From the IMG/VR virus record IMGVR_UViG_3300031460_000007, positions 1 to 28,254 of that record: a stretch of DNA of 28,254 nt, one strand, 5' to 3'. This document shows, piece by piece, positions 15,499-26,544 of the stretch. Origin of the DNA: a virus. Lineage: Duplodnaviria > Caudoviricetes. Position 1 is the first letter of the stretch, and each line of letters opens with the position of its first letter. A program made the position numbers and the translations under genes. The notes under the pieces are model-generated. The model made no database searches, was not told where the DNA came from, and saw nothing but the letters and a program-made list of their open reading frames with translations.

Positions 15499-16449
15499 TC
15501 AAGGAGCGCTGTCAGCTGTTTGATACGCCAGCGTGATCAGCGGGCTGCCCGGCGTCAGGAGCGCCTTGAACGGGATCGTCTGGCGCACGAGGTCGGAACC
15601 GGCGATCGCGGGGTTGGCCCCGGTATACTCGATGGCCGGGATCGTGGTCGTCAGGATGCTCGCGCCGTTGGTGTGCGTCATCGTCAGCGCGGCGACCGCG
15701 CCGCTGATGAATTTGTTGTAGACGGTCATATCCTCGAACTCTTTGTCGAGTTGGCCCGTGACCGCGTGCTCGCCGTTGGCGATCGGCTGCGACTTCTGAT
15801 TGCCGAGGTAGCGCCGGTCCATCGCCATCGCCCGCGTGCCCGTGATCTGCACGGTGCGGAGGTTGGCCGAGACGCCATCGAGCGAGATCGCCGCGTCGAG
15901 GAACGCCAGCGGGGCATTGGCGGCGGGGTAGGACGCGACCGCGAGCGCCGAGGCCACGTCGTTGATGTTGGTGAAGTCGAAGGTCAGGCGGAGCTTCAGG
16001 TTCTGGTCCATCTGCTGATCGAGCATCCAGGTATGGATTTTGCCGCCGGTGTAGTTGAAGGGCACGACGACGCCGTTCGTCTGCGGCTTGCCGACCTGCA
16101 CGGTCAGCGACGACCCTTGCAAGCCGACGCCATCCGGGGTCGCGGTGTGGGTGAACGGTGCGGCGGCCCCCGCCGTGACGATCGTGCCGAGCATGTTCTT
16201 GAGCAGGATACCCATGCCCGACGCCATGAAATCCACTTCGATCTGGCCGTTATAGTTTTTGATGTAGGCGCGGCGGCGGGTGGTGCGGACGAACTGATCG
16301 CCCAGTCCGCGCGTCTGCAACGACGGACGATCGGGGACGATCCCCTCCGTGAGGAACTCCAGGAAACGGGTGGGGGGGGTGAACACCCCGTACCCCACGC
16401 CCTCTTGTGCTATTCCCACTTGTGAACTTAGTCCACTCCCAAATGGCAT
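15499..16449 (-). CDS. Major tail tube protein, 316 aa
   Basis: MPFGSGLSSQVGIAQE...YG...PTRFLEF start typical of siphophage tube proteins; GGGAGGGG SD before ATG 16449. Confidence 0.85.
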   Translation of the reverse strand: MPFGSGLSSQVGIAQEGVGYGVFTPPTRFLEFLTEGIVPDRPSLQTRGLGDQFVRTTRRRAYIKNYNGQIEVDFMASGMGILLKNMLGTIVTAGAAAPFTHTATPDGVGLQGSSLTVQVGKPQTNGVVVPFNYTGGKIHTWMLDQQMDQNLKLRLTFDFTNINDVASALAVASYPAANAPLAFLDAAISLDGVSANLRTVQITGTRAMAMDRRYLGNQKSQPIANGEHAVTGQLDKEFEDMTVYNKFISGAVAALTMTHTNGASILTTTIPAIEYTGANPAIAGSDLVRQTIPFKALLTPGSPLITLAYQTADSAP

Positions 16450-16549
16450 TCTACAGCCCTCCCATGCTATACTTTTGGCAACAGAAAGCCGCGCCGGTGC
16501 TGCAAACACCGCGCGGCGCGACACCCCGAACTCGTGTCAGGAGTTCCGA
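16444..16549 (+). promoter_or_regulatory. HNH promoter and structured 5' leader, copy A
   Basis: TGGCAT (16444-49), TGcTATACT (16465-73), hairpin 16488-16517, GCGAC, SD-covering stem gaactc/gagttc. Confidence 0.75.
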
Positions 16550-17407
16550 ATGCCCCGCAAGTATACGCCGCCCGCGCCCCGCTGCTGCGAGCAATGCGGC
16601 CAAGCCTTCACCCCGAAGCGCAACCGTCACGACCAAGCCCCGCAACGCTTTTGCAGCCGTGCTTGTCGCGGTGCCAGCCAACGACGCACCGTCACTGCGG
16701 TGTGCGCCAGTTGCGGGGTGGATTTCGTCCCCGTCACCAGCGAGCGCGCCCGTGGCGGCGGTCTGTACTGCGGCACCGCGTGTTACCACACCGCCCAACG
16801 CACTACCATCGAACTGACGTGCGCCCACTGCGAACGGGTATTCACCCGCACACCCTCGACGGTCGGGCGATTTTGCTCCCATACGTGCTACAACCTGTCG
16901 CGGAAGGTTGCGCTCGTTTGCCCGCGCTGTGGCGAGACGTTCTACCGCAAGGCAAGCCAGACGGGAACGGCCCGGTATTGCTCCCGTGCGTGCAAGGAGC
17001 GCGAAACGCCCGCCGAGACGGCGGCGCGCTTCTGGTCCCAAGTGGACAAGTCGGGCGAATGCTGGCTGTGGAAAGGCAGTGTGATCCACTCCGGCTACGG
17101 ACGATTTACCGCAGACGGCAAGCAGACCTCCGCGCACCGTTGGTCGTACCAACACGCCTATGGCCCGTTGGCTGAAGGCCTGCTCGCCTGCCACAGTTGT
17201 GACACTCCCCGCTGCGTCAACCCTGCCCATCTGTTCCCCGGCACTCATGCCACCAACACCGACGATATGGTCAGGAAGGAACGCAACGTGCGCGGTAGCC
17301 TCTGCCACACGGCGAAGTTGCGCGTTGCAGACGTTCACGCTATTCGTGGCGCTTACGCACGCGGCGAACGCACCCAACGTCAACTCGCCACCCATTACGG
17401 GGTGTGA
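16550..17407 (+). CDS. Free-standing HNH endonuclease with four N-terminal Cys4 zinc-finger repeats, antisense to the operon; C-terminal HTH cut by a TGA (frame continues to 17458)
   Basis: CxxC...(F/Y)C(S/G)xxC x4; RFWSQVDKSGECWLW...GYG...AHRWSY...HSCDTPRCVNPAHL...N; AGGAG SD before ATG 16550. Confidence 0.9.
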   Translation: MPRKYTPPAPRCCEQCGQAFTPKRNRHDQAPQRFCSRACRGASQRRTVTAVCASCGVDFVPVTSERARGGGLYCGTACYHTAQRTTIELTCAHCERVFTRTPSTVGRFCSHTCYNLSRKVALVCPRCGETFYRKASQTGTARYCSRACKERETPAETAARFWSQVDKSGECWLWKGSVIHSGYGRFTADGKQTSAHRWSYQHAYGPLAEGLLACHSCDTPRCVNPAHLFPGTHATNTDDMVRKERNVRGSLCHTAKLRVADVHAIRGAYARGERTQRQLATHYGV

Positions 17408-17454
17408 CCTGAACTGATCGGGCGTGTTGTCCGGCGCGAAACTTGGCGTCACGT

Positions 17455-17793
17455 TTAGTTACCCCCTGTCTGTGGTAGCGCGACCGGGGCCACGGGCGGC
17501 ACATACGGCACCGCCTCGGCGGGCGGGGCCGGTGGCACGACGATCTGCCCGGTCTGCGGATCGACCGCCGCGACCGGGATGCTCTGCTGCGCCTCGGCGA
17601 TCGGCTCGGCGGCCTTGCCGACCGCCTGCCAGTCCGCCTGCAACGTCAACGCGGCGGCCAGGTCGAGCGGTACTTCGATGACGCCGTTCTGCGGCACCTC
17701 GCCCGGCAAGCCCAATTCTTCGAGCGCGGGGATGAATACCCCGTCCTGGAACGGCCCGACATAGCGGATGCGGGCCTTTGTCTCATCGGCCAT
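17455..17793 (-). CDS. Hypothetical Pro-rich protein preceding the tail tube, 112 aa
   Basis: AAGGAGG SD; IRYVGP...GV.IP pattern; synteny. Confidence 0.7.
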   Translation of the reverse strand: MADETKARIRYVGPFQDGVFIPALEELGLPGEVPQNGVIEVPLDLAAALTLQADWQAVGKAAEPIAEAQQSIPVAAVDPQTGQIVVPPAPPAEAVPYVPPVAPVALPQTGGN

Positions 17794-17803
17794 CGTCTCC
17801 TCC

Positions 17804-18277
17804 TTAGCTCGTGAGTTCGGTGTACACGTCGATCCTGATCTCCAGCGTGGCCCACCTGCCGTTATCGGTCATGCCCTGCGTCAGATTGGCGCTCGCCAGT
17901 TGCGTGCGGTAGACCGAACGCTGCATCGTGTAATTCGTCCGTAGCTCGTCCTCCACGACCGCCAGGATCGCGTAGGCCCGCTGGCGCGCGGCGTCCGCGA
18001 CCGCCTCGGAGCCATCCGCGAGGTCCGCGCCCGCCTGCAGGATGAAGATGCCGCCCCGGATGGTGTACTGCTCGGTGCGCCGCCGGTTGCCGAGCGCGCC
18101 CCACGCCTGCGTGTCGTCGCTCCCGTATAGCTCCACCATCTCGAGCGGCAGCGGATCGCCCGCCGGGGCGGCGAACGCCAGCACGGTCGCGGTCGTCGGA
18201 TTGCCCGCCAGTCGGACATTCAGCCGATCGCGCAGCGTCGCCATGAACGCCGGGACGGTGCTGGTCGTCGTTGCCAT
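17804..18277 (-). CDS. Tail terminator-like protein, 157 aa
   Basis: Size and position; RAYAILAVVEDELR helix followed by terminal beta strands. Confidence 0.65.
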   Translation of the reverse strand: MATTTSTVPAFMATLRDRLNVRLAGNPTTATVLAFAAPAGDPLPLEMVELYGSDDTQAWGALGNRRRTEQYTIRGGIFILQAGADLADGSEAVADAARQRAYAILAVVEDELRTNYTMQRSVYRTQLASANLTQGMTDNGRWATLEIRIDVYTELTS

Positions 18278-19158
18278 CAGGCGATCCCCACGGTCGATTC
18301 CATGTAATCGGAGAGCACCGCGTCGACGTTGGGTATCCCGAACCAGCTATTCCGGCCCATGCCGGGGGTCGCCATGCGGAACGTGCCCGCCCCGCTCGGA
18401 TCGGACCAGCTCGTCGTGCGCTCGCTGATGTTGGTCAGCACCAGTTGGTTGACAACCGCGATCAGCGCCGCGCGCCGGATCGGTTCGGGCGGTTGCGCGT
18501 AGCCGTACTCGTAGCCGACCTGCACGGTGAGGCTCGGCAGGCGTAACTCGCTGTACAGGCTGGTGCCGTAATACATGCTGCCGCGCGTGACGATCCCCGT
18601 GGCGAGGTCGCTGTCGAGCGCGGCCAGTTGGGCGGCGCTGTACGGGACGTAGGCCGACGCGCCCGGTGCGCGCGTGGCGATCGAGCGGATCGCCGTGATC
18701 GGCTGGTCGGGCAATTGGAACTCGAACCAGTCCGCGCCCGAGATGGCGCGGAAGCGGTAGCGCGGGACGAACGAGACTTTGCAGATACGCTCGAACCGCT
18801 CGGTGATCAGCGTCCGCGCCGCGAGGATCGCCGCGTCGGGGAAGTTGGTCGCGTTGGCAAGCTGCCGCTTGTCGAACGCCCGCGCGTCCGCGACCTCGAA
18901 GAGGGTCGCCCCGACGAGCTCCACCCGCGCGCTCAGAGTGCCGAGCGATTGCGAGGTGAACACGCCGACCAGGGTGTTCAGTTGCGCCGTGTCGAGCAGC
19001 GTCATGGCGTAGCTGGCGACGTTACCGGCGACCGTGGCGAGCGCGTTGGTGTAGACCGGGACGCCATCGAGCGTCGTCACCGTGACCGTCACCGCGCCGG
19101 GCGGGGCCGGATAGGTGACGCTGAGGGTGGCCGGGGTAGCGATCAGGCTCATCGTCAT
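18277..19158 (-). CDS. Head-tail adaptor (gp6/gp15-like) with N-terminal beta-rich extension, 293 aa
   Basis: ITERFERIC...VGYEYGYAQPPEPIRRAAL...VDAVLSDY motif. Confidence 0.75.
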   Translation of the reverse strand: MTMSLIATPATLSVTYPAPPGAVTVTVTTLDGVPVYTNALATVAGNVASYAMTLLDTAQLNTLVGVFTSQSLGTLSARVELVGATLFEVADARAFDKRQLANATNFPDAAILAARTLITERFERICKVSFVPRYRFRAISGADWFEFQLPDQPITAIRSIATRAPGASAYVPYSAAQLAALDSDLATGIVTRGSMYYGTSLYSELRLPSLTVQVGYEYGYAQPPEPIRRAALIAVVNQLVLTNISERTTSWSDPSGAGTFRMATPGMGRNSWFGIPNVDAVLSDYMESTVGIA

Positions 19159-19361
19159 CCGCGCCGCTCCGTGCGTGCGCTGACGGCGGCGGTATCCACG
19201 ACCGCGCCGCCAGTCGCCCGCTTGACGACGCGCGCGGGCGTGTCCGCATACTCGGCGCGACCGACCGCGACGAGCGCCCGCGCCTCCTCAGCGGTGGCCT
19301 CGCGTACCGCGCCCGGTACGTCCGTCGTCCCCGCCTGTCGCGCCAGTATGCGGATCAGCAT
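19155..19361 (-). CDS. Small conserved-type post-capsid protein, 68 aa
   Basis: PGAVRE...EEARALVAVGRAEY pattern; GGAGG SD. Confidence 0.7.
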   Translation of the reverse strand: MLIRILARQAGTTDVPGAVREATAEEARALVAVGRAEYADTPARVVKRATGGAVVDTAAVSARTERRG

Positions 19362-19374
19362 CCTCGTACCCTCC

Positions 19375-19803
19375 TTAGACCGGGCGATCGTTCGGGGTGT
19401 TGACCGCCGCCTCGTTCACGGCCTGCTGCTGCTCGATCGGCGGGGCGACCGGCGCGACCGGCACCTCGACGTGGGTGATGTTCTGCTTGGCGGCGGCGTC
19501 ATACGCGGCCTGATACGCCTTCGCGGCCTCGGCGCGGGCCTGCTCGCGCAGGTGGGAGACGCCGCCCGGTGCCGCCGCCTGGGCGACGAGCGCGGCGGCG
19601 GCACCATCGCGCGCCCCGGCGGCGGTCGCGTCCGCGACGACGCGGGCGTTGGCGACCTCCTCGGCGAACTGGTTGGGGAACGTGTCGAATCCCTGATGGC
19701 TCACCTGCTCCACGATCGTCTGCGACGCGGTCACCGCGTCTACCGGGGTATTGACCACTTCCAGCACACCGTCCGGGTTCTGTGGGGTGTCGTTGCGTGC
19801 CAT
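19375..19803 (-). CDS. Hypothetical Ala-rich protein, 142 aa
   Basis: GGAGG SD, strong GC3 bias, follows the capsid gene. Confidence 0.7.
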   Translation of the reverse strand: MARNDTPQNPDGVLEVVNTPVDAVTASQTIVEQVSHQGFDTFPNQFAEEVANARVVADATAAGARDGAAAALVAQAAAPGGVSHLREQARAEAAKAYQAAYDAAAKQNITHVEVPVAPVAPPIEQQQAVNEAAVNTPNDRPV

Positions 19804-19826
19804 CTGCTCTGTCCTCCGTGTTAGGT

Positions 19827-19853
19827 GCCGCGCGGGACCATTCCCCGCGCGGC
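19827..19853 (-). terminator. Hairpin after the major capsid gene (terminator or mRNA stabiliser)
   Basis: gccgcgcggga-ccat-tccccgcgcggc; no U-tract. Confidence 0.5.
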
Positions 19854-19884
19854 GACTCGTGTTACCAGTCGTGTATTACGCTAA

Positions 19885-21168
19885 CTACGTGGCCGAGTTG
19901 GCATAGTAAACTATCGGGTTGGTGCCCGCGTTTACTAGCGTACCGTCGAGCCGTTCAAAGACAAAAAACCCTGTTTGGAGGTAATCAGCGTAGCGCTCCT
20001 CGAGCCGGATCAGCGTGTTGTCCTTCACGCTGCGAATCCAGTAGTTGGAGAAGTCGCCGTAGAGGATGCTCTTCGCGCTCGCGGTCATCACCGGCATGTC
20101 CTGGTTGATGGTGTAGGGCGCGTTGAGGATGCTCGGCGGCATCCCGCCGATGTTCTGCCCGAGGTCGTAGCCGGGGTTCCACAGCGGGCGGCCCTGGCCG
20201 TCGAGCAGCGCCCGGATCGCGCGCAGCGTCGAGTCGTGGAACATCCACTCCGCGCCGTCGCGGTAGGCCGGATCGACCGCGTGCTGCATGGCCAGGAGGT
20301 TGAGGTACGAGATCGCGGTCGTGTTGCCCACCGCTGCGGTGACGCCCGCCGTGGCCCCGGTGAGGATGCCCTGCGGCTGGCCCGCGCCCGTGCCGCTGGT
20401 CAGGTAGGTGTTCTCCACGCGCCCGAGGCGCTCGCCCGCGATCGAGGCGATGAACGCGGGCAGGTCGAAGTAGCTGTCCTGCAACATCTGCCAGGAGATC
20501 AGGATCAGCTTCGAGGTGAAGGTGTAGGCGTTGAGGGTCTTCGTGGTGAAGACCGGCTCCTGCTCGGTGATCTGGGTGTTCTCCGTGAGTAGCGCGCCCG
20601 CGTTCCCGGTGTCGTTGACCATCGGGATCGGCAGGGGGTTGCCGGTGTCGGTGTTGAACTTGCGCGTCCCGGCCTTGAGCATCCCGCCGTATTGCAGGCG
20701 GGCGCGGGTCAAGATGTCCGCGAACCCTTGCGGGATCAGATAGCCGCCGACCGCGCCAGCGGTGGTACCGAGCGCGGCGCGCTCCTCAATCCGCATCCCC
20801 CGATCGAGCACCATCCGCTGCTCGCGCTCGATGCCGGTCTTGCCGTTGCGGACGTAGCCCCAGAACGCCGCGTCGTACTCCTCCTGGGAGGGCACGACGC
20901 GCGTGTTGCGCCCGGTGACGAGATCGCCACCCGGCAGCATCCGCACGTCCCGATCGACGATCGACAGCTCGCTCTTGCGGTCGGCGTGGCGCTTGACGCG
21001 CTCCAATTCGGCGGTCTTGGCGTCGAGATCGGCTTCCAGTGTGTCGTACCGCTGCGCCTCCTCGGCGGTGAGGCTGCGCTGCCCGTCCGCGCGGGCACCT
21101 TCGAGGATGCCCGTCATGTCCTTCCATGTCACCTGTCGCTGCTCGGCCAGTCGTTTCAGTTCTTCCAC
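19885..21168 (-). CDS. Major capsid protein, HK97 fold with N-terminal delta domain, 427 aa
   Basis: N-terminal coiled coil, GGYLIP, ISWQMLQDS, GTGAGQPQGIL, GRPLW, YGDFSNYWI, ERLDG. Confidence 0.95.
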   Translation of the reverse strand: MEELKRLAEQRQVTWKDMTGILEGARADGQRSLTAEEAQRYDTLEADLDAKTAELERVKRHADRKSELSIVDRDVRMLPGGDLVTGRNTRVVPSQEEYDAAFWGYVRNGKTGIEREQRMVLDRGMRIEERAALGTTAGAVGGYLIPQGFADILTRARLQYGGMLKAGTRKFNTDTGNPLPIPMVNDTGNAGALLTENTQITEQEPVFTTKTLNAYTFTSKLILISWQMLQDSYFDLPAFIASIAGERLGRVENTYLTSGTGAGQPQGILTGATAGVTAAVGNTTAISYLNLLAMQHAVDPAYRDGAEWMFHDSTLRAIRALLDGQGRPLWNPGYDLGQNIGGMPPSILNAPYTINQDMPVMTASAKSILYGDFSNYWIRSVKDNTLIRLEERYADYLQTGFFVFERLDGTLVNAGTNPIVYYANSAT

Positions 21169-21174
21169 GGTGTC

Positions 21175-21268
21175 ATGCTCCTAGTGCGTAGTGCCGCGCG
21201 TTCATCGCGTGGCGGCGGGTCAACAGATCCAGCGCGTACCCGTCCGAGTGGCTTGTCACCGGCTCGGC
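21175..21268 (-). pseudogene. Probable decayed original 3' end of the prohead protease gene
   Basis: Starts with a 13-bp copy of protease sequence; reads AEPVTSHSDGT then, after a 1-nt shift, LDLLTRRHAMNARHYALGA*. Confidence 0.45.
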
Positions 21269-21951
21269 TCTGCATCGGAGTGTGGTTCACACGGCTCCGG
21301 TGTGGGCGTTAGTAGTAGTCGTAGTTGTGCGGGGATGCGGCCTGCGCCGCGCGACAGGTTGCAGGAAGCATGGGCAACAGCGAGATTATTCGCGGTGTGA
21401 TCGCCGCCCTTGCTCACCGGTACGAGATGGTCAAGATGGATGGCTTTCGGGTCAAGTACCCGCTTGCCGCAAATGTGGCAAATCGCCCTGTCCCGCGCGA
21501 TGACTGCTGCCCGGTCAACCTTATCGACTCGCGCAGCGGCCATCTTGCGCGCGCGGTATTGCCCACTAAAGTCGAGGTTCTTCGCGGGGTTCGCCTGTCG
21601 CCATAGACGCTGGTATGCGCGGCGTTCTGCGCGATACGTATCGAGATGAGCAAGCCGACGCGCGCGCGCCTTTGCGCCGAGTTCCGCGCGATAGGTGGCA
21701 TCTTCGTGGTACCGCCGTAGCATTCGCGCCTTGGTCGCGGCGGCATACTGCTTCTTGCGCTCCCGCTCCCGGTCGAGGTTCGCGGCGGCAAATGTCCGCT
21801 TCGCGTGGTCCCGGCAGGACTTGCAACGCGAGTCATAGCCATCGGGCCGCCCGCAATTGCGCGGGAACTCTGCCAGCGACTTGGTTTGCACGCACGCTGT
21901 GCAACGTTTCGTGGTGGGCAAGGTGGGGGCGTGTTGGGTATGATGGTCCAT
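21256..21951 (-). CDS. Free-standing HNH endonuclease with N-terminal zinc finger, 231 aa (frame open to ATG 22062)
   Basis: KRCTAC...EF...DG...CKSC; RDRAICHICG...HLDHLVPVSKGGDHTANNLAVAHASCNLSRG; AGGAGGT SD before ATG 21951. Confidence 0.9.
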   Translation of the reverse strand: MDHHTQHAPTLPTTKRCTACVQTKSLAEFPRNCGRPDGYDSRCKSCRDHAKRTFAAANLDRERERKKQYAAATKARMLRRYHEDATYRAELGAKARARRLAHLDTYRAERRAYQRLWRQANPAKNLDFSGQYRARKMAAARVDKVDRAAVIARDRAICHICGKRVLDPKAIHLDHLVPVSKGGDHTANNLAVAHASCNLSRGAGRIPAQLRLLLTPTPEPCEPHSDAEPSR

Positions 21952-22054
21952 GCCGTACCTCCTGAATAGGTCGGTCGCGCCGGAGGCTGTTTGCAGCAGC
22001 GCTCCGGCACATCTCTGTTCGCCCAAGTATATCATTTTTGGCGTCCCAATGCCA
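21952..22054 (-). promoter_or_regulatory. HNH promoter and structured 5' leader, copy B
   Basis: TGGCAT (22054-49), 17 nt, TATACT with TG extension (22034-26), hairpin 22008-21979, GCGAC, SD-covering stem. Confidence 0.75.
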
Positions 22055-22064
22055 TAAATCATGG

Positions 22065-22886
22065 TTACGCGACCCCCGCAAGATGGACCGGAAGGTCGTA
22101 TTTCACCGCGCCGAGCCGGTACTGACGAGCGGCGGTGCCAAAGTCCCTGCTGCCCTTACTCACCGGCTCGGCGCGGCTTACAAGTTCGGCCAGCGCTGTA
22201 TGGGCGGCTCGCAGCGCGGGCAGGAGGGCTTCATCGGGGGTGGTCGAGGTGGTGAGGGCGCGCACCAACTGACCGCGCTGCTCCTCGGGGAGATCGAGCA
22301 GGCCGAACGCATGGAGGAAGGACCGCGCCTCGCGCGAGCGCAGGCCGATGTCCGTCTCCGCGTAGGCGGGCGTGCTCACGGCGGCCACGTCGTACAGGTT
22401 CACCTCGCGCAGGGTGCGGATCGGCGTCCCCTCGTCCGTCTCGTCCCAGTCGTCCTTGACGGCCTGGAAGGCGAACGACATCTGCGAGATGTTGCCCGCT
22501 TGCATGTTGGTGGCGAGGTCGCGGGCGTAGGTCGTGGGGGCCATCCGCGCGTCGATCAGCAACCCGTCGCCATCGTCGGAGAGGGTGAGGTTCCCGGCGG
22601 CGGTGCGCGCCAGGATGTAGGTGTCGTTGTGATCAATATTGAACGTGACATCGCCACCGTCGCGCAGCGTCTTGGTGAACGCACCGGGCGCGATGACCTC
22701 AATGAAACGCCCCTCCCACAAGTCTTGGAGCGGCTGCGAGCGCACGTCGTAGAGCGCGGCGTGCCCCTGGACCGGGATCGCGCCATCCGCACCCGCCGCG
22801 CGGACTTCGAGGCCCACGGTCGCGGTGCGACGCACCACCTGGGCGCGATTGGCCGCGCGTCGCGCCTGATCGATCAGCGTGCTCAT
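22065..22886 (-). CDS. HK97-type prohead maturation protease, 273 aa
   Basis: GHAALYD, EVIAPGAF, DHND..ILART, QMSFAF, LYDVAAVSTPAYAET. Confidence 0.93.
   Translation of the reverse strand: MSTLIDQARRAANRAQVVRRTATVGLEVRAAGADGAIPVQGHAALYDVRSQPLQDLWEGRFIEVIAPGAFTKTLRDGGDVTFNIDHNDTYILARTAAGNLTLSDDGDGLLIDARMAPTTYARDLATNMQAGNISQMSFAFQAVKDDWDETDEGTPIRTLREVNLYDVAAVSTPAYAETDIGLRSREARSFLHAFGLLDLPEEQRGQLVRALTTSTTPDEALLPALRAAHTALAELVSRAEPVSKGSRDFGTAARQYRLGAVKYDLPVHLAGVA
22106..22176. repeat. Perfect 15-bp inverted repeat with 41-nt spacer inside the protease 3' end
   Basis: ccgcgccgagccggt (22106-20) / accggctcggcgcgg (22162-76). Confidence 0.85.
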
Positions 22887-23137
22887 GTGCGGTACTCCTT
22901 GCTGAAAACGGGCATCAGGTCAGGCGCGACCGCCCCATCTACTACCTCGTTGAATGTCTCCGAGTGCACGAAAAACAGCAGCACGTCGGAAACGGGGTCG
23001 TATGCGGTCCTGAGCAGCTTGGCGTCCTCTGGCATCCCCGAAATGAAGAGCGCATCGCGAAGCGTGGCATCCTGCAATGACACCAGCATCCCGATCAGGA
23101 GAACCGGACGAATACGCAAGATACGATAGCGATTCAT
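22883..23137 (-). CDS. Lower-GC hypothetical protein between portal and protease, 84 aa
   Basis: TGATG and ATGA overlaps; GMPEDAKLL...VHSETF..V.DG..AP. Confidence 0.7.
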   Translation of the reverse strand: MNRYRILRIRPVLLIGMLVSLQDATLRDALFISGMPEDAKLLRTAYDPVSDVLLFFVHSETFNEVVDGAVAPDLMPVFSKEYRT

Positions 23138-24411
23138 CAGTTCACCCCCGTATTGTCCGGAGCGGACCCATCGGCCCCGCCCTGCCCCTGGCCGCCATCG
23201 CCGCCGTTCCCGGCCGGTGTCGGCGCGGGGCCGACGTTGCTGTTCAGCGCGGCCTCGTAGTCGTCCCCGGTCGGGTCATCGATCGGGGCCAGTTGCTCGG
23301 TCGTGCGGATGTCATTCTTGCTGAGCACGCCGATCGTCCGGGCGATCTGGTAGATCTGCCAGCGCTCGATCGCCTTGCCCCGCAGCACGGAGTCGAGGTC
23401 GAACCGCGCGTACCGGTCGGCCACGGGCAGGAGGTCGTCGCTGATCGCCTGCTCGAAGCGCGACAACCACGGGCCGAGCGTGTAGGTGACGAAACCCTGC
23501 TGCTGCTCCTCGAGCCCCTTGCCCCAGGAAGTCGATTTGTCCATGATACCGAGCATGTGGGGCGGCACCCGGAAGAGCGTGGCGATCTCCGTCGCCGAGA
23601 ACTTCATCGTATCGAGGAACTGCGCGTCGCCCGGCGTGAGCCCGGTCGATTGCCAGGTCGCGCCATTGCCAAGGACGCCGACCTTGTGCATGTTCCGCGC
23701 GCCCGCGTGGAGCTTCTGCCAGCGCCGCCCCAGTTCGCTCGCCTGCTGGTCGCTGATCTCCTCCTTGGTCGAGAGGAAACCGGGGACGTGCGACCCCTGC
23801 GCGTAGAAACTCGCCGCGCCCTGCTCCGCGCCCATGCCGATACCGAGCGACTCTTTCGCCTGGGCGATCGGCGATAACCCTTTCAGTCCGTCCACGCCCC
23901 ACGCCGGGATATGGCAGATGTCGGCGGTGGTGAACGTCTCCCGCCCGATGTCGAACACTTTGGCCCCGCTGCGCTCGTCGCGCCGGATCGTCACCTGCTG
24001 CGGGTTGATCGGCCAGAGTTCGGCGAGCGCGCCCGACCGATCGCGCAGCTTGTGGATGTAGGCGTTCCCGTCGAGCAGGCAGTGACCGGCGAGGAGTTCC
24101 CAGAACACCTGCCGGGTCATCTCCGGGTTCGGCTTGCCCCAGATCAGGCGGTCGGCAGGCTGGTGCAACTCCTCGCGGAAATTGCCGCGCCGGTAGACCT
24201 GCAACGGCAACGCGCCGATCCCCTCGGCGATGATCCGCACGCAGGTATAGACCGTGACGTTGCGGAGCGCGGTCGCCTGATTGACGAGCAGGCCGCTATT
24301 GGCGGGGAGTCCCGAATCCGTGCCAAGCACGAGGGCGGCATAGGCATCCGCGCTCGGATTGTTCAGCGAGGATCCCGCGCGGCGCTCCATCATGCGCGTC
24401 AGCACCGTCAT
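23137..24411 (-). CDS. Portal protein, HK97 family, 424 aa
   Basis: VYTCVRIIAE, PNPEMT, GNAY, GLSPI, DAQFL, IATLFRVPPHMLG, NDIRTTE; start MTVLTR at 24411 after GGAG. Confidence 0.95.
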   Translation of the reverse strand: MTVLTRMMERRAGSSLNNPSADAYAALVLGTDSGLPANSGLLVNQATALRNVTVYTCVRIIAEGIGALPLQVYRRGNFREELHQPADRLIWGKPNPEMTRQVFWELLAGHCLLDGNAYIHKLRDRSGALAELWPINPQQVTIRRDERSGAKVFDIGRETFTTADICHIPAWGVDGLKGLSPIAQAKESLGIGMGAEQGAASFYAQGSHVPGFLSTKEEISDQQASELGRRWQKLHAGARNMHKVGVLGNGATWQSTGLTPGDAQFLDTMKFSATEIATLFRVPPHMLGIMDKSTSWGKGLEEQQQGFVTYTLGPWLSRFEQAISDDLLPVADRYARFDLDSVLRGKAIERWQIYQIARTIGVLSKNDIRTTEQLAPIDDPTGDDYEAALNSNVGPAPTPAGNGGDGGQGQGGADGSAPDNTGVN

Positions 24412-24512
24412 CGGCCCATCTCCGGACAAAAGTTTGGGCAAAAATAGGGCAATAAAGTGTCCGCCGCGCCGCCTGCGCCGGGGATATACTGGCACGGTAG
24501 GAAGGAGGAGCG

Positions 24513-24776
24513 ATGATCACGACACGACCGGACTATCTGACCGAGCGCGAGTGGGGCGCGTTCTGCGAGATGTGGCGATGGAAGCGACTCTGCCAACAAT
24601 TGCTTGATAACCCCATGATCGAGCGCAAAGTCGCGTACACACTGATCGACAGTACGATGAAAGAGGCGTGGCGACGGGCGGGCATGACGAAGGGGGTGTG
24701 GCACCATACCGCACAAGAATCTGCATGGCTGATCGCGCTGCACGCCGTACACCTGCCCGACGATGATTTGCTCTGA
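24513..24776 (+). CDS. Antisense-oriented Trp-rich hypothetical protein (moron), 87 aa
   Basis: AGGAAGGAGG SD, TATACT at 24485-90, lower GC than the flanks. Confidence 0.7.
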   Translation: MITTRPDYLTEREWGAFCEMWRWKRLCQQLLDNPMIERKVAYTLIDSTMKEAWRRAGMTKGVWHHTAQESAWLIALHAVHLPDDDLL

Positions 24777-24781
24777 TGCGC

Positions 24782-24970
24782 TCACCGTGGCACCGCCACG
24801 AGCGGCGCGACGTACCAGATCAGGAACGCGCCGAACGCCACCAGCCCGAGCGGCCACGACCACCACGCGGCACCGCTCACCGCGACGAGCCAGCCGAGGA
24901 GTTCGCAGGCGATCGCCGCGAGGGCGCGCACGGCGCTGACACGCGGCACGGCGGGGCGCTCGTCCATCAC
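24782..24970 (-). CDS. Small two-TM membrane protein between TerL and portal
   Basis: ELLGWLVAVSGAAWWSWPLGLVAFGAFLIWY; GTGA overlap with the TerL stop; common at this position. Confidence 0.75.
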   Translation of the reverse strand: MMDERPAVPRVSAVRALAAIACELLGWLVAVSGAAWWSWPLGLVAFGAFLIWYVAPLVAVPR

Positions 24971-26544
24971 GCCCCCGCTTCGTCGTCATCGAAGACCCAG
25001 AACTGCGGCACCTTCGACGGCTCCGCCGGTTTGCCCGCCTCAGCCACGGACATCACCAACGCGATCGGGCCGTCGTTCTCACGGCGGTCGTGCGTCTTGA
25101 CCAGTCGCTGCCCACCACCCGAGACTTGCTTCGCGACCGCGTCGCCCATCTGGCGCGCGAGCGCGGGATCGCCCTCGTGCCCGAGGCGTTGGTCGATGAT
25201 CAGCTCGTAGAGCGCCTGGGTGGGCGGGCACATGCGCGTGTTGGTCTGCGGCATCTCCACCATCGCCACGCCCTCGGCTTCGAGGCTCGCGGCCATCCAG
25301 GTGATAAACGCGGGGTCATACGCCACGGCGGCGAGGTTGCCGCCCCGATGCAACTCCCGGATGTGGTTCTCCACCTCGGCGATCGGCAGCCGCCAGCCGT
25401 CCGCGACCTGGCCGGTGTGCGGGTCGCGCGGCGCGCTCCAGATGCGCGCCTTGATCCTGAGCTGATCGTCCCACCACTGCGCGCAGACGACAGCCGTGCT
25501 GTCCTTCTTGGTGGAGGCATCGACGCCCGCATAGATCGGGCGCTGCAAATCGAACGCGAACGGCGCGATCGCGCAGTCGTGCCACGCGCCGGGCGGTAGC
25601 CACGGCTTCTCGCCGCGCGTCCAGATACCGAGGAAGTAGCGGACGAAGACCTCGCGCGGCTTGCGCTTCCATTGGTCGCGGTAGAACGGCAGATCGACCG
25701 TATGACCGAGCGAGGGATTCGCCTGCGCGACTGCGCGCTCCCACTGTGCCGGGTCTTCGAGGTCGAGCGTCTCGTCCGCCGCGTAGATGCGCGCGTAGAA
25801 CTCGGGATCGCTCAGTTCGCCCTTGATGATTTTCAGCGCCTGCTCGTGGTAGCGCCCGCAGACCGTATCGAGGTCGAATCCCGCCGTGGTGATCATGATC
25901 ACGAGCGGTTCCTGTCGCGCGCCGGTCGCGTTCGTCAGGACGTTGAACAAGCCTTCGCCCTTCGGCCCCTTGAACTCGTGCAGCTCATCGAGTGCGACCA
26001 GGCTCAGGTTTTTGCCGTCGTTGGTGCCGACCGTCGCCGAGTAGCGCGCGATCTTGGCGGCGGGGTTCTCCTTCAGGACGATCTCTTTGGCGTAGCAGGT
26101 GGTCAACGCCGCGAGGTCCGGCGACATCTCGCACATCGCTTTGGCCGCGCCGAAGACAAGATCGGCCTGCTCGTCGCTGTTGGCCGCACAGGCGATCTCC
26201 GGCGATTCCTCGCCATCCGCGACGAGCATGTAGACATCGATCGCGGCGATCAGCTCGGTCTTGCCCTGCTTCTTCGGGATCTCGATGTACGCCCAGCGAT
26301 AGCGCCGCCGCCCCGTGACCGGATCGATCTCGAAGAGTTCGTAGAGGAGCTTCTTCTCCCACGGCAGCAGGACGAACGGCTTGCTGCGCCAGCGTCCCTT
26401 GGTGTGGACGCAGTACCGCTCGATGAAGTCGATCACATGCTGGCCGCGCGTGGGGTATTCGCGCACGGTGCCGTCCGGCATCCGCTGGCGGATCGTGCGC
26501 GTGGCGACCGGCGCGGCGGTCGGGCGCTCCATGACCACCATCAA
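24967..26544 (-). CDS. terL: Terminase large subunit
   Basis: Walker A IPKKQGKT, Walker B VALDELH, ITTAG coupling motif, ANPSLG, nuclease GVDAS..KDSTA and NDGPIA. Confidence 0.96.
   Translation of the reverse strand: MMVVMERPTAAPVATRTIRQRMPDGTVREYPTRGQHVIDFIERYCVHTKGRWRSKPFVLLPWEKKLLYELFEIDPVTGRRRYRWAYIEIPKKQGKTELIAAIDVYMLVADGEESPEIACAANSDEQADLVFGAAKAMCEMSPDLAALTTCYAKEIVLKENPAAKIARYSATVGTNDGKNLSLVALDELHEFKGPKGEGLFNVLTNATGARQEPLVIMITTAGFDLDTVCGRYHEQALKIIKGELSDPEFYARIYAADETLDLEDPAQWERAVAQANPSLGHTVDLPFYRDQWKRKPREVFVRYFLGIWTRGEKPWLPPGAWHDCAIAPFAFDLQRPIYAGVDASTKKDSTAVVCAQWWDDQLRIKARIWSAPRDPHTGQVADGWRLPIAEVENHIRELHRGGNLAAVAYDPAFITWMAASLEAEGVAMVEMPQTNTRMCPPTQALYELIIDQRLGHEGDPALARQMGDAVAKQVSGGGQRLVKTHDRRENDGPIALVMSVAEAGKPAEPSKVPQFWVFDDDEAGA

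Follow-up and report, generated by a model that had tools for sequence, protein, structure and literature searches.

Stop-free frames opposite antisense HNH genes of phages: probable ribosome bridges across backwards inserts in late operons

Free-standing homing endonuclease genes of the T4 type (mob, seg) resemble the inserts described here, which lie in a 28,254-base Caudoviricetes contig (IMG/VR record IMGVR_UViG_3300031460_000007; the window of this study is the entire contig). Shared features include optional HNH genes between or inside conserved genes, filled and empty alleles, an altered flank and a predicted hairpin covering the Shine-Dalgarno (SD) sequence, and co-oriented genes coupled to the upstream gene are described for the T4 type as well (PMC2988022, in the part of the text covered). 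That part describes no open frame opposite an inverted gene, unlike the window, where two genes inserted against the direction of the late operon are each spanned on the operon strand by a long open reading frame (ORF), here called a bridge, that runs from one operon gene to the next. The inverted segD gene of T4 also differs, being flanked by terminators according to the same part of PMC2988022 and having an interrupted frame opposite it. Judged from their sequences, the window inserts fit free-standing homing endonuclease genes.

Other described systems are partial parallels. The ShiLan domain, a hidden out-of-frame HNH in actinophage DNA methylases, likewise leaves its host frame stop-free, so that translation passes without splicing, but it lies on the same strand, inside the gene, and the open frame belongs to the methylase (PMC11855218, covered in part). 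The window HNH gene is antisense and intergenic, and the frame open opposite it forms an independent ORF that starts and stops at codons of its own, so the gene is not a ShiLan case; the words 'reverse', 'antisense' and 'opposite' do not occur in the covered text of PMC11855218. Frame -1 shadow ORFs of GC-rich genes share the codon-in-register antisense geometry and the lack of a family and a conserved product, whereas the excess of bridges of the window type depends on operon orientation, not on third-position GC content (GC3), and their ends are coupled to neighbours (comparison with the covered part of PMC3454372). In Pseudomonas phage Fc02, olg1/gene 10 is also an operon-strand ORF overlapping an opposite gene, but both proteins have a shown exclusion function, whereas the bridges carry no shared protein constraint (PMC9936078, as far as its text was covered). 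No description of antisense bridges across backwards inserts was found in the literature searched, which left subscription journals and supplements largely outside its scope.

The minus strand of the window encodes a head-and-tail operon with terminase, portal, prohead protease, capsid, tail tube, tape measure, lysin and holin genes (Pfam), and the contig is present in rock metagenomes sequenced as DNA only. From the packaging HNH gene to the capsid start, 10/10 junctions fall within -4..+4 nt when the bridges and a displaced protease frame (described below) are counted in. Bridge 1 begins with a GTG placed 2 nt past the TAA (17457-17455) of a 112-aa gene, ends with a TAG 1 nt short of the tail-tube ATG (16449) and is codon-in-register with the plus-strand HNH gene, which contains no TTA, CTA or TCA codon. 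Bridge 2 begins in a GTGA that overlaps the stop of a 61-aa gene, ends in an ATGA on the portal start (24411) and is in register with a plus-strand orphan ORF of 87 aa (the 'moron'); its frame stays open farther upstream to an ATG at 24989. Re-examination agreed with the initial annotation on the coordinates of both bridges and of an ATG at 22062 before a co-oriented HNH gene, and on the crossing of promoter DNA, since both bridges pass without a stop over a plus-strand -10-like hexamer (Table 1). We consider both minus-strand frames to be likely ribosome bridges, kept stop-free across backwards inserts; the case is strong for the HNH class, proceeds by analogy for the orphan and finds no support for the leader of the co-oriented HNH gene.

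The case for the HNH class was built on a survey of relatives. The HNH_3 match of the antisense HNH protein falls under Pfam's curated cut-off, and 64 other proteins were found, most with PF13392, identifying an HNH nuclease domain. Around HNH relatives, 327 loci were fetched, with the best 80 kept per scan, so that these are samples rather than totals. Flanking genes were called with a simple purpose-made finder, which was checked on the window and on a relative with 94% capsid identity (L001) and was run independently of the HNH stretch. Loci were excluded when a stop interrupted the match (20, of which 19 belonged to the PF01844 set), when they were near-duplicates at >=70% identity (20), when neighbours could not be called on each side (35), when orientation was mixed (26) and when the length was <80 codons (2); 49 antisense and 175 co-oriented HNH loci remained. 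Opposite-strand neighbours, examined in the antisense class only, were PHROG-confirmed (at least one) at 32 of the 49 loci and at 15 of the 23 open ones, and are mostly head, tail and lysis genes. Openness of the in-register opposite frame (the shadow) was scored against a null giving the codon-matched expectation of zero TTA, CTA and TCA, termed anti-stop codons.

Antisense HNH genes are free of anti-stop codons far more often than their codon use predicts, with 23/49 against 2.26 expected, while co-oriented genes follow the expectation (13/175 against 13.64; Fisher p=1.7e-9). Held-out loci, pooled, gave 12/23 antisense (1.5 expected) and 12/126 co-oriented genes (11.8 expected; p=8.8e-6). 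The antisense and co-oriented counts were 11/26 vs 1/49 in the discovery set, 7/10 vs 4/43 in the second viral set and 3/5 vs 2/34 in the PF01844 family, and became 24/49 vs 20/175 when counted from the homology match to the stop only. Mean GC3 is 0.56 in antisense and 0.58 in co-oriented genes. Of 59 codons, the most depleted in antisense HNH genes are TCA (0.48), TTA (0.54) and CTA (0.56), and off-register frames show no depletion (discovery set); because these three codons are the most depleted and the off-register frames are not, GC content, strand bias and general rare-codon avoidance are argued against. The open genes have <49% mutual identity and are scattered, requiring 19 changes for 20 rows on the tree.

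The ends of the open frames are tied to the neighbouring genes in a frame-specific manner. Read on through the non-coding leader, the in-register frame meets its first stop -11..+17 nt relative to the start of the next gene at 15 of the 23 open loci, and the other frames do so at 2 and 2; at the 26 broken loci the same count by frame is 4, 3 and 1. A strict 3' window of -4..+3 nt leaves 10 in-register endings vs 1 and 0, and held-out 3' coupling alone gives 6 vs 2 and 0 of 12 (p=0.02). Stops in the leaders of 20 open loci number 7, 20 and 16 by frame. At the other end, start codons were counted at -4..+10 nt relative to the stop of the preceding gene; the in-register frame has one at 15 of the 23 open loci and the other frames at 6 and 1, and the corresponding counts for the 26 broken loci are 10, 5 and 10; these figures supersede a 5'-coupling count of 18 vs 1 and 3 that was biased by conditioning on openness. 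Complete single bridges are present at 12 of the 23 open loci, against 0.04-0.25 expected among 49. Selection against the three anti-stop codons and frame-specific coupling are thus statistically evident in antisense HNH genes.

Within the window itself, the precise coupling of the ends, which the initial annotation regarded as the real signal, turned out to be inherited from empty-allele junctions. L001 lacks all three inserts as well as an 84-aa gene present in the window, and its 61-aa gene overlaps the portal start directly, as GTGA. The window retains the L001-type GTGA to the left of the insert, with the portal TGA-CG to the right; therefore, bridge 2 starts at the portal's ancestral start. 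The antisense HNH gene is missing in contigs of runs X2, X4, X5 and X6 (4/4 examined), which join across the site. The empty tube junction of X6 reads stop, 2 nt, ATG where the window reads stop, 2 nt, GTG, an equal spacing, and the window's right junction at the tube matches the end of the upstream gene of L001 in 11/13 letters, TAG included. By this comparison, insertion splits one coupled stop/start junction and leaves a copy on each side, the bridge ends being largely inherited. Because the ends are halves of an ancestral junction, their coupling in the window alone proves little; the free variables are frame match and openness over many independent loci, and the signal lies there.

Close relatives with an empty site (L001; 4/4 runs) mark the insert as optional, which is characteristic of homing endonucleases. 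Over its initial 81 nt (16369-16449, minus strand) the tube gene has other letters in the empty X2/X4/X5 allele, and this stretch is a candidate co-converted target region of the antisense HNH. Homing of the window HNH genes, by cleavage of the empty allele and gene conversion, may be reflected in these 81 replaced letters and in differing displaced protease ends. The X2 contig, which lacks the antisense HNH gene, differs from the window in 59 letters over 17456-23182 and in 7 over 23181-25200. The HNH cassette probably had an open shadow on arrival, because strains so nearly identical lack the insert and there was likely little time to purge stops.

One alternative is that GC-rich codon use leaves in-register frames open by chance, while the old stop and start flank the insert as fossils, with no selection involved. 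The phage is GC-rich, and in-register shadows are fully open in 7/29 other correctly framed window genes; long in-register antisense ORFs are, moreover, a known by-product of codon bias (PMC3454372, covered in part), and both ends of both bridges match empty-allele junctions. Taken alone, the window HNH gene would have an open coding shadow by chance with P=0.07-0.16, depending on the codon model, and the leaders of the two bridges would be open with P=0.41 and 0.50; across the HNH leader the bridge 1 frame has no stop and the remaining two frames do. Over the survey, co-oriented HNH genes of equal GC3 are open as often as the null predicts (13 vs 13.6) and antisense genes ten times as often, genes of low GC3 are open too (L058, 0.38; L257, 0.36; L275, 0.39), and inherited ends would match the frame only by chance, yet do so at 15 loci vs 2 and 2. 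With openness in excess of codon use (23 vs 2.3) and ends tied to neighbours, the class does not have the properties of chance shadows; this explanation is largely refuted for antisense HNH genes and improbable overall.

For the orphan insert by itself, chance and fossils remain a more serious contender, although we still lean away from them. An open shadow has P=0.02-0.57 there, depending on the codon model, and the joint chance (this value x 0.5 x 1/3) is not small. Homologs of the orphan were searched for and none were found; its bridge can accordingly be argued by analogy alone, and the analogy suggests that it may be the same phenomenon as the HNH bridge. Three single-nucleotide variants (SNVs) occur in bridge 2 across four runs, and none creates a stop. 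A terminator-like hairpin within bridge 2 (24465-24448) was rejected as no more than chance (4 found vs 6.6 in shuffles). The X8 contig matches 24413-24824 in two short pieces ~900 bases apart, a hint, too short to trust, of a longer, different insert at the portal junction.

Several observations weigh against a role as ribosome bridges. The GTDB set by itself is not significant (2/8 vs 6/49, p=0.31); 26/49 antisense HNH loci are interrupted, and among these no relay of <=3 ORFs was found, while 3 loci have one of four ORFs. The shadow of T4 segD is broken, with 9 anti-stop codons vs 7.7 expected, only 1/6 loci of <50% GC is open, and non-HNH lone antisense genes, from 10 uncertain calls, are open in 3/10 cases vs 1.8 expected. 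A search for a cultured example gave none, 6/6 HNH matches examined in annotated phages not being lone antisense inserts. Gene calls came from a simple finder made for the purpose, the coupling windows were set after viewing the discovery loci, the trees are poorly resolved (2/75 branches starred in the quick tree), and an independent-pairs test had only 3 pairs. In the window, the operon strand across the HNH gene is G-rich (skew +0.10) and not C-rich, C-rich make-up being the usual association of Rho loading, and the SD before bridge 2 (GGCGG) is weaker than the GGAGG before the same GTG in the empty allele.

The initial annotation had proposed that inserts are tolerated only if ribosomes can run through them, and had suggested a survey against a codon null, which was run here for HNH genes. 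The antisense class does lie far above that null, with both ends coupled, but 'only if' fails: because 26/49 loci, T4 segD and 5/6 low-GC loci are broken, bridging is one solution and not a condition of tolerance. Among the individual loci, L080 (3349) has coupled ends and is interrupted once, by a stop that an ATG follows 6 nt later, and L077 and L078 are coupled at the 3' end with four stops each; all may be decaying or relay bridges. L027 (2156), L063 (3435), L084 (3139) and L121 (3475) have the stop codon of the preceding gene in frame with the bridge (TAG in 3/4), and read-through could also feed the bridge. Two loci from records titled cyanobacteria (L152 and L185; n=2) have interrupted shadows with 7 and 2 anti-stop codons; to our knowledge, cyanobacteria lack Rho.

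Translation might instead have been selected for the handling of sense-antisense RNA, with the late mRNA shielded from pairing with the HNH transcript and from double-stranded RNA cutting, or HNH expression damped. A promoter directed into the operon is predicted for each antisense insert, the operon strand across the window HNH gene is not C-rich, and a cost that inverted endonuclease genes are said to incur is the production of antisense transcripts (PMC2988022, covered text). RNA handling does not itself require a frame that ends at the downstream start, as seen within -4..+3 nt in 10 loci vs 1 and 0; it is compatible with ribosome bridges and not exclusive of them, and as the selected benefit we regard it as unlikely.

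Least probable of all is that the bridges are true overlapping genes with functional proteins (for exclusion or nuclease inhibition, for example, as with gene 10/olg1 of Fc02). Antisense phage overlaps with protein function exist (PMC9936078, covered in part), and high expression would be expected of an ORF coupled within a late operon. The shadows show no purifying selection on protein, with an identity of 0.208 across the 21 open loci compared and of 0.201 in controls, comparisons too distant to speak against a lineage-specific function, and 0/25 shadow proteins match PHROG. At shared four-fold residues, third-position identity of the shadows is 0.274 vs 0.277 in matched co-oriented genes, and because the two are so close no shadow protein appears to be shared. 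The bridge 1 protein has no Pfam or PHROG match and its exact sequence is absent from the called proteins searched; the single coding SNV in the orphan is silent for the orphan and alters the shadow (n=1).

On the ribosome-bridge reading, ribosomes that have completed the preceding operon gene would reinitiate at the inherited start site, cross the backwards insert and its promoter while making what is likely a junk protein, and stop at the start of the downstream gene, keeping coupling to the tube and portal genes. Their passage might protect the late mRNA against early termination or degradation. Leader and coupling peptides and engineered non-polar cassettes are comparable in that translation matters, not the product, and in that they carry ribosomes to the next start; unlike the bridges, they are short or man-made and are not encoded opposite another gene. 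Rho-dependent polarity is an established risk for operons whose RNA is left untranslated (PMC12360218, covered in part). From the sequence patterns we infer that the bridges are translated, that their product is junk and that the benefit would be relief of polarity or preservation of coupling.

Long antisense frames in GC-rich genomes are routinely written off as artefacts, and the subset described here bears an orientation-dependent selection signature. If translation is confirmed, selfish genes have a way to occupy essential operons in reverse orientation and still leave the genes beyond them expressed, and bridges would be a sequence-readable marker of the importance of polarity or coupling in uncultured phages and a natural, testable case of selection for translation as such. 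We hold tentatively, and with somewhat more doubt than belief, that bridge ORFs form a general unrecognised class of element, such that any gene, nuclease or other cargo, inserted in reverse into a coupled phage operon either is screened for a stop-free frame that takes over the downstream start site or brings one ready-made. Were this true, inverted cassettes would be portable and non-polar, a three-codon ban would apply to the passenger, and abundant translated junk would be raw material for new genes.

Table 1 Features of the window around the bridges and inserts (SD, Shine-Dalgarno sequence).
Feature	Position	Strand	Match or basis
Tail tube gene, 3' partner of bridge 1	15499-16449	-	Phage_tube_2 E=2e-28
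Bridge frame 1, 333 aa, no family	17452-16451	-	ORF positions
Predicted promoter and leader of antisense HNH: extended -10 16465-16473, hairpin ~16488-16517, SD 16539-16543 under predicted hairpin	16465-16543	+	
Antisense free-standing HNH_3-type endonuclease gene, 285 aa, N-terminal Cys repeats	16550-17407	+	HNH_3 E=2e-4
112-aa operon gene 5' of bridge 1; stop and SD-like run feed bridge GTG	17455-17793	-	
Displaced original protease 3' end; right repeat copy 21268-21256	21173-21268	-	Peptide same as L001 protease end
Co-oriented HNH gene inside protease 3' end; absent from L001	21256-21951	-	PF01844, E=5e-10
37-codon in-frame extension across leader of co-oriented HNH; extended -10 22034-22026, hairpin ~22010-21977; no support for selection	21952-22062	-	
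Replacement C-terminus of prohead protease, cassette-supplied; starts with left copy of 13-bp direct repeat (22172-22160)	22065-22172	-	
Co-oriented insert of 84 aa in the portal-protease interval, both ends coupled (-1, -4); not in L001	22883-23137	-	Weak phrog_20473 match
Portal gene, 3' partner of bridge 2	23137-24411	-	Phage_portal E=1e-94
Bridge frame 2, 125 aa	24785-24408	-	ORF positions
Antisense orphan gene ('moron'), 87 aa, strong SD, -10 hexamer 24485-24490; absent from L001	24513-24776	+	
61-aa hydrophobic gene between terL and portal	24782-24967	-	

The co-oriented HNH cassette in the protease gene was also proposed to have a bridged leader. The ATG at 22062 lies 2 nt past the protease TAA, in frame and 37 codons 5' of the strong-SD ATG at 21951, and a leader of this kind would be open by chance with P=0.20. 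This proposal was not upheld in the survey, where 3, 4 and 3 of 49 co-oriented leaders were bridged in the three frames, with no in-frame excess, in a test biased against the claim since start choice can absorb open leaders. The displaced protease piece forms a 28-aa frame from a GTG at 21259, as GTGA on the HNH stop, and ends 4 nt before the capsid GTG; because the X2/X4/X5 allele lacks this overlap, it is not required. Protease C-termini vary among cluster members and the displaced end of X2/X4/X5 differs, as homing into different recipients would predict. The protease insert was considered as an intron and rejected, with no Rfam support and another right-hand end in X2/X4/X5; no group I or II intron RNA matched Rfam up to E=5 within 16000-25200, a search that divergent introns can escape.

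The leaders of the two window HNH genes (16465-16552, plus strand; 22034-21949, minus strand) are alike, with an alignment score of 68 vs <=38 in 500 shuffles, and have in common an extended -10 followed by a bulged hairpin with a CUGCAAA-type loop. Predicted folding of the antisense HNH leader has z=-1.74 (14/200 shuffles equally good), and the element has no Rfam match. Within the survey, 4/7 matches to the leader motif, a pattern shaped on these examples, lie just 5' of an HNH start (0.08 expected), at L125 (2768), L129 (1762), L135 (2943) and L276 (1629). The pattern is possibly a regulatory RNA element common to HNH cassettes. Upstream in the operon, a near-consensus sigma-70-type promoter lies 5' of the packaging HNH gene (27560-27532, minus strand) and is a candidate start of the late transcript.

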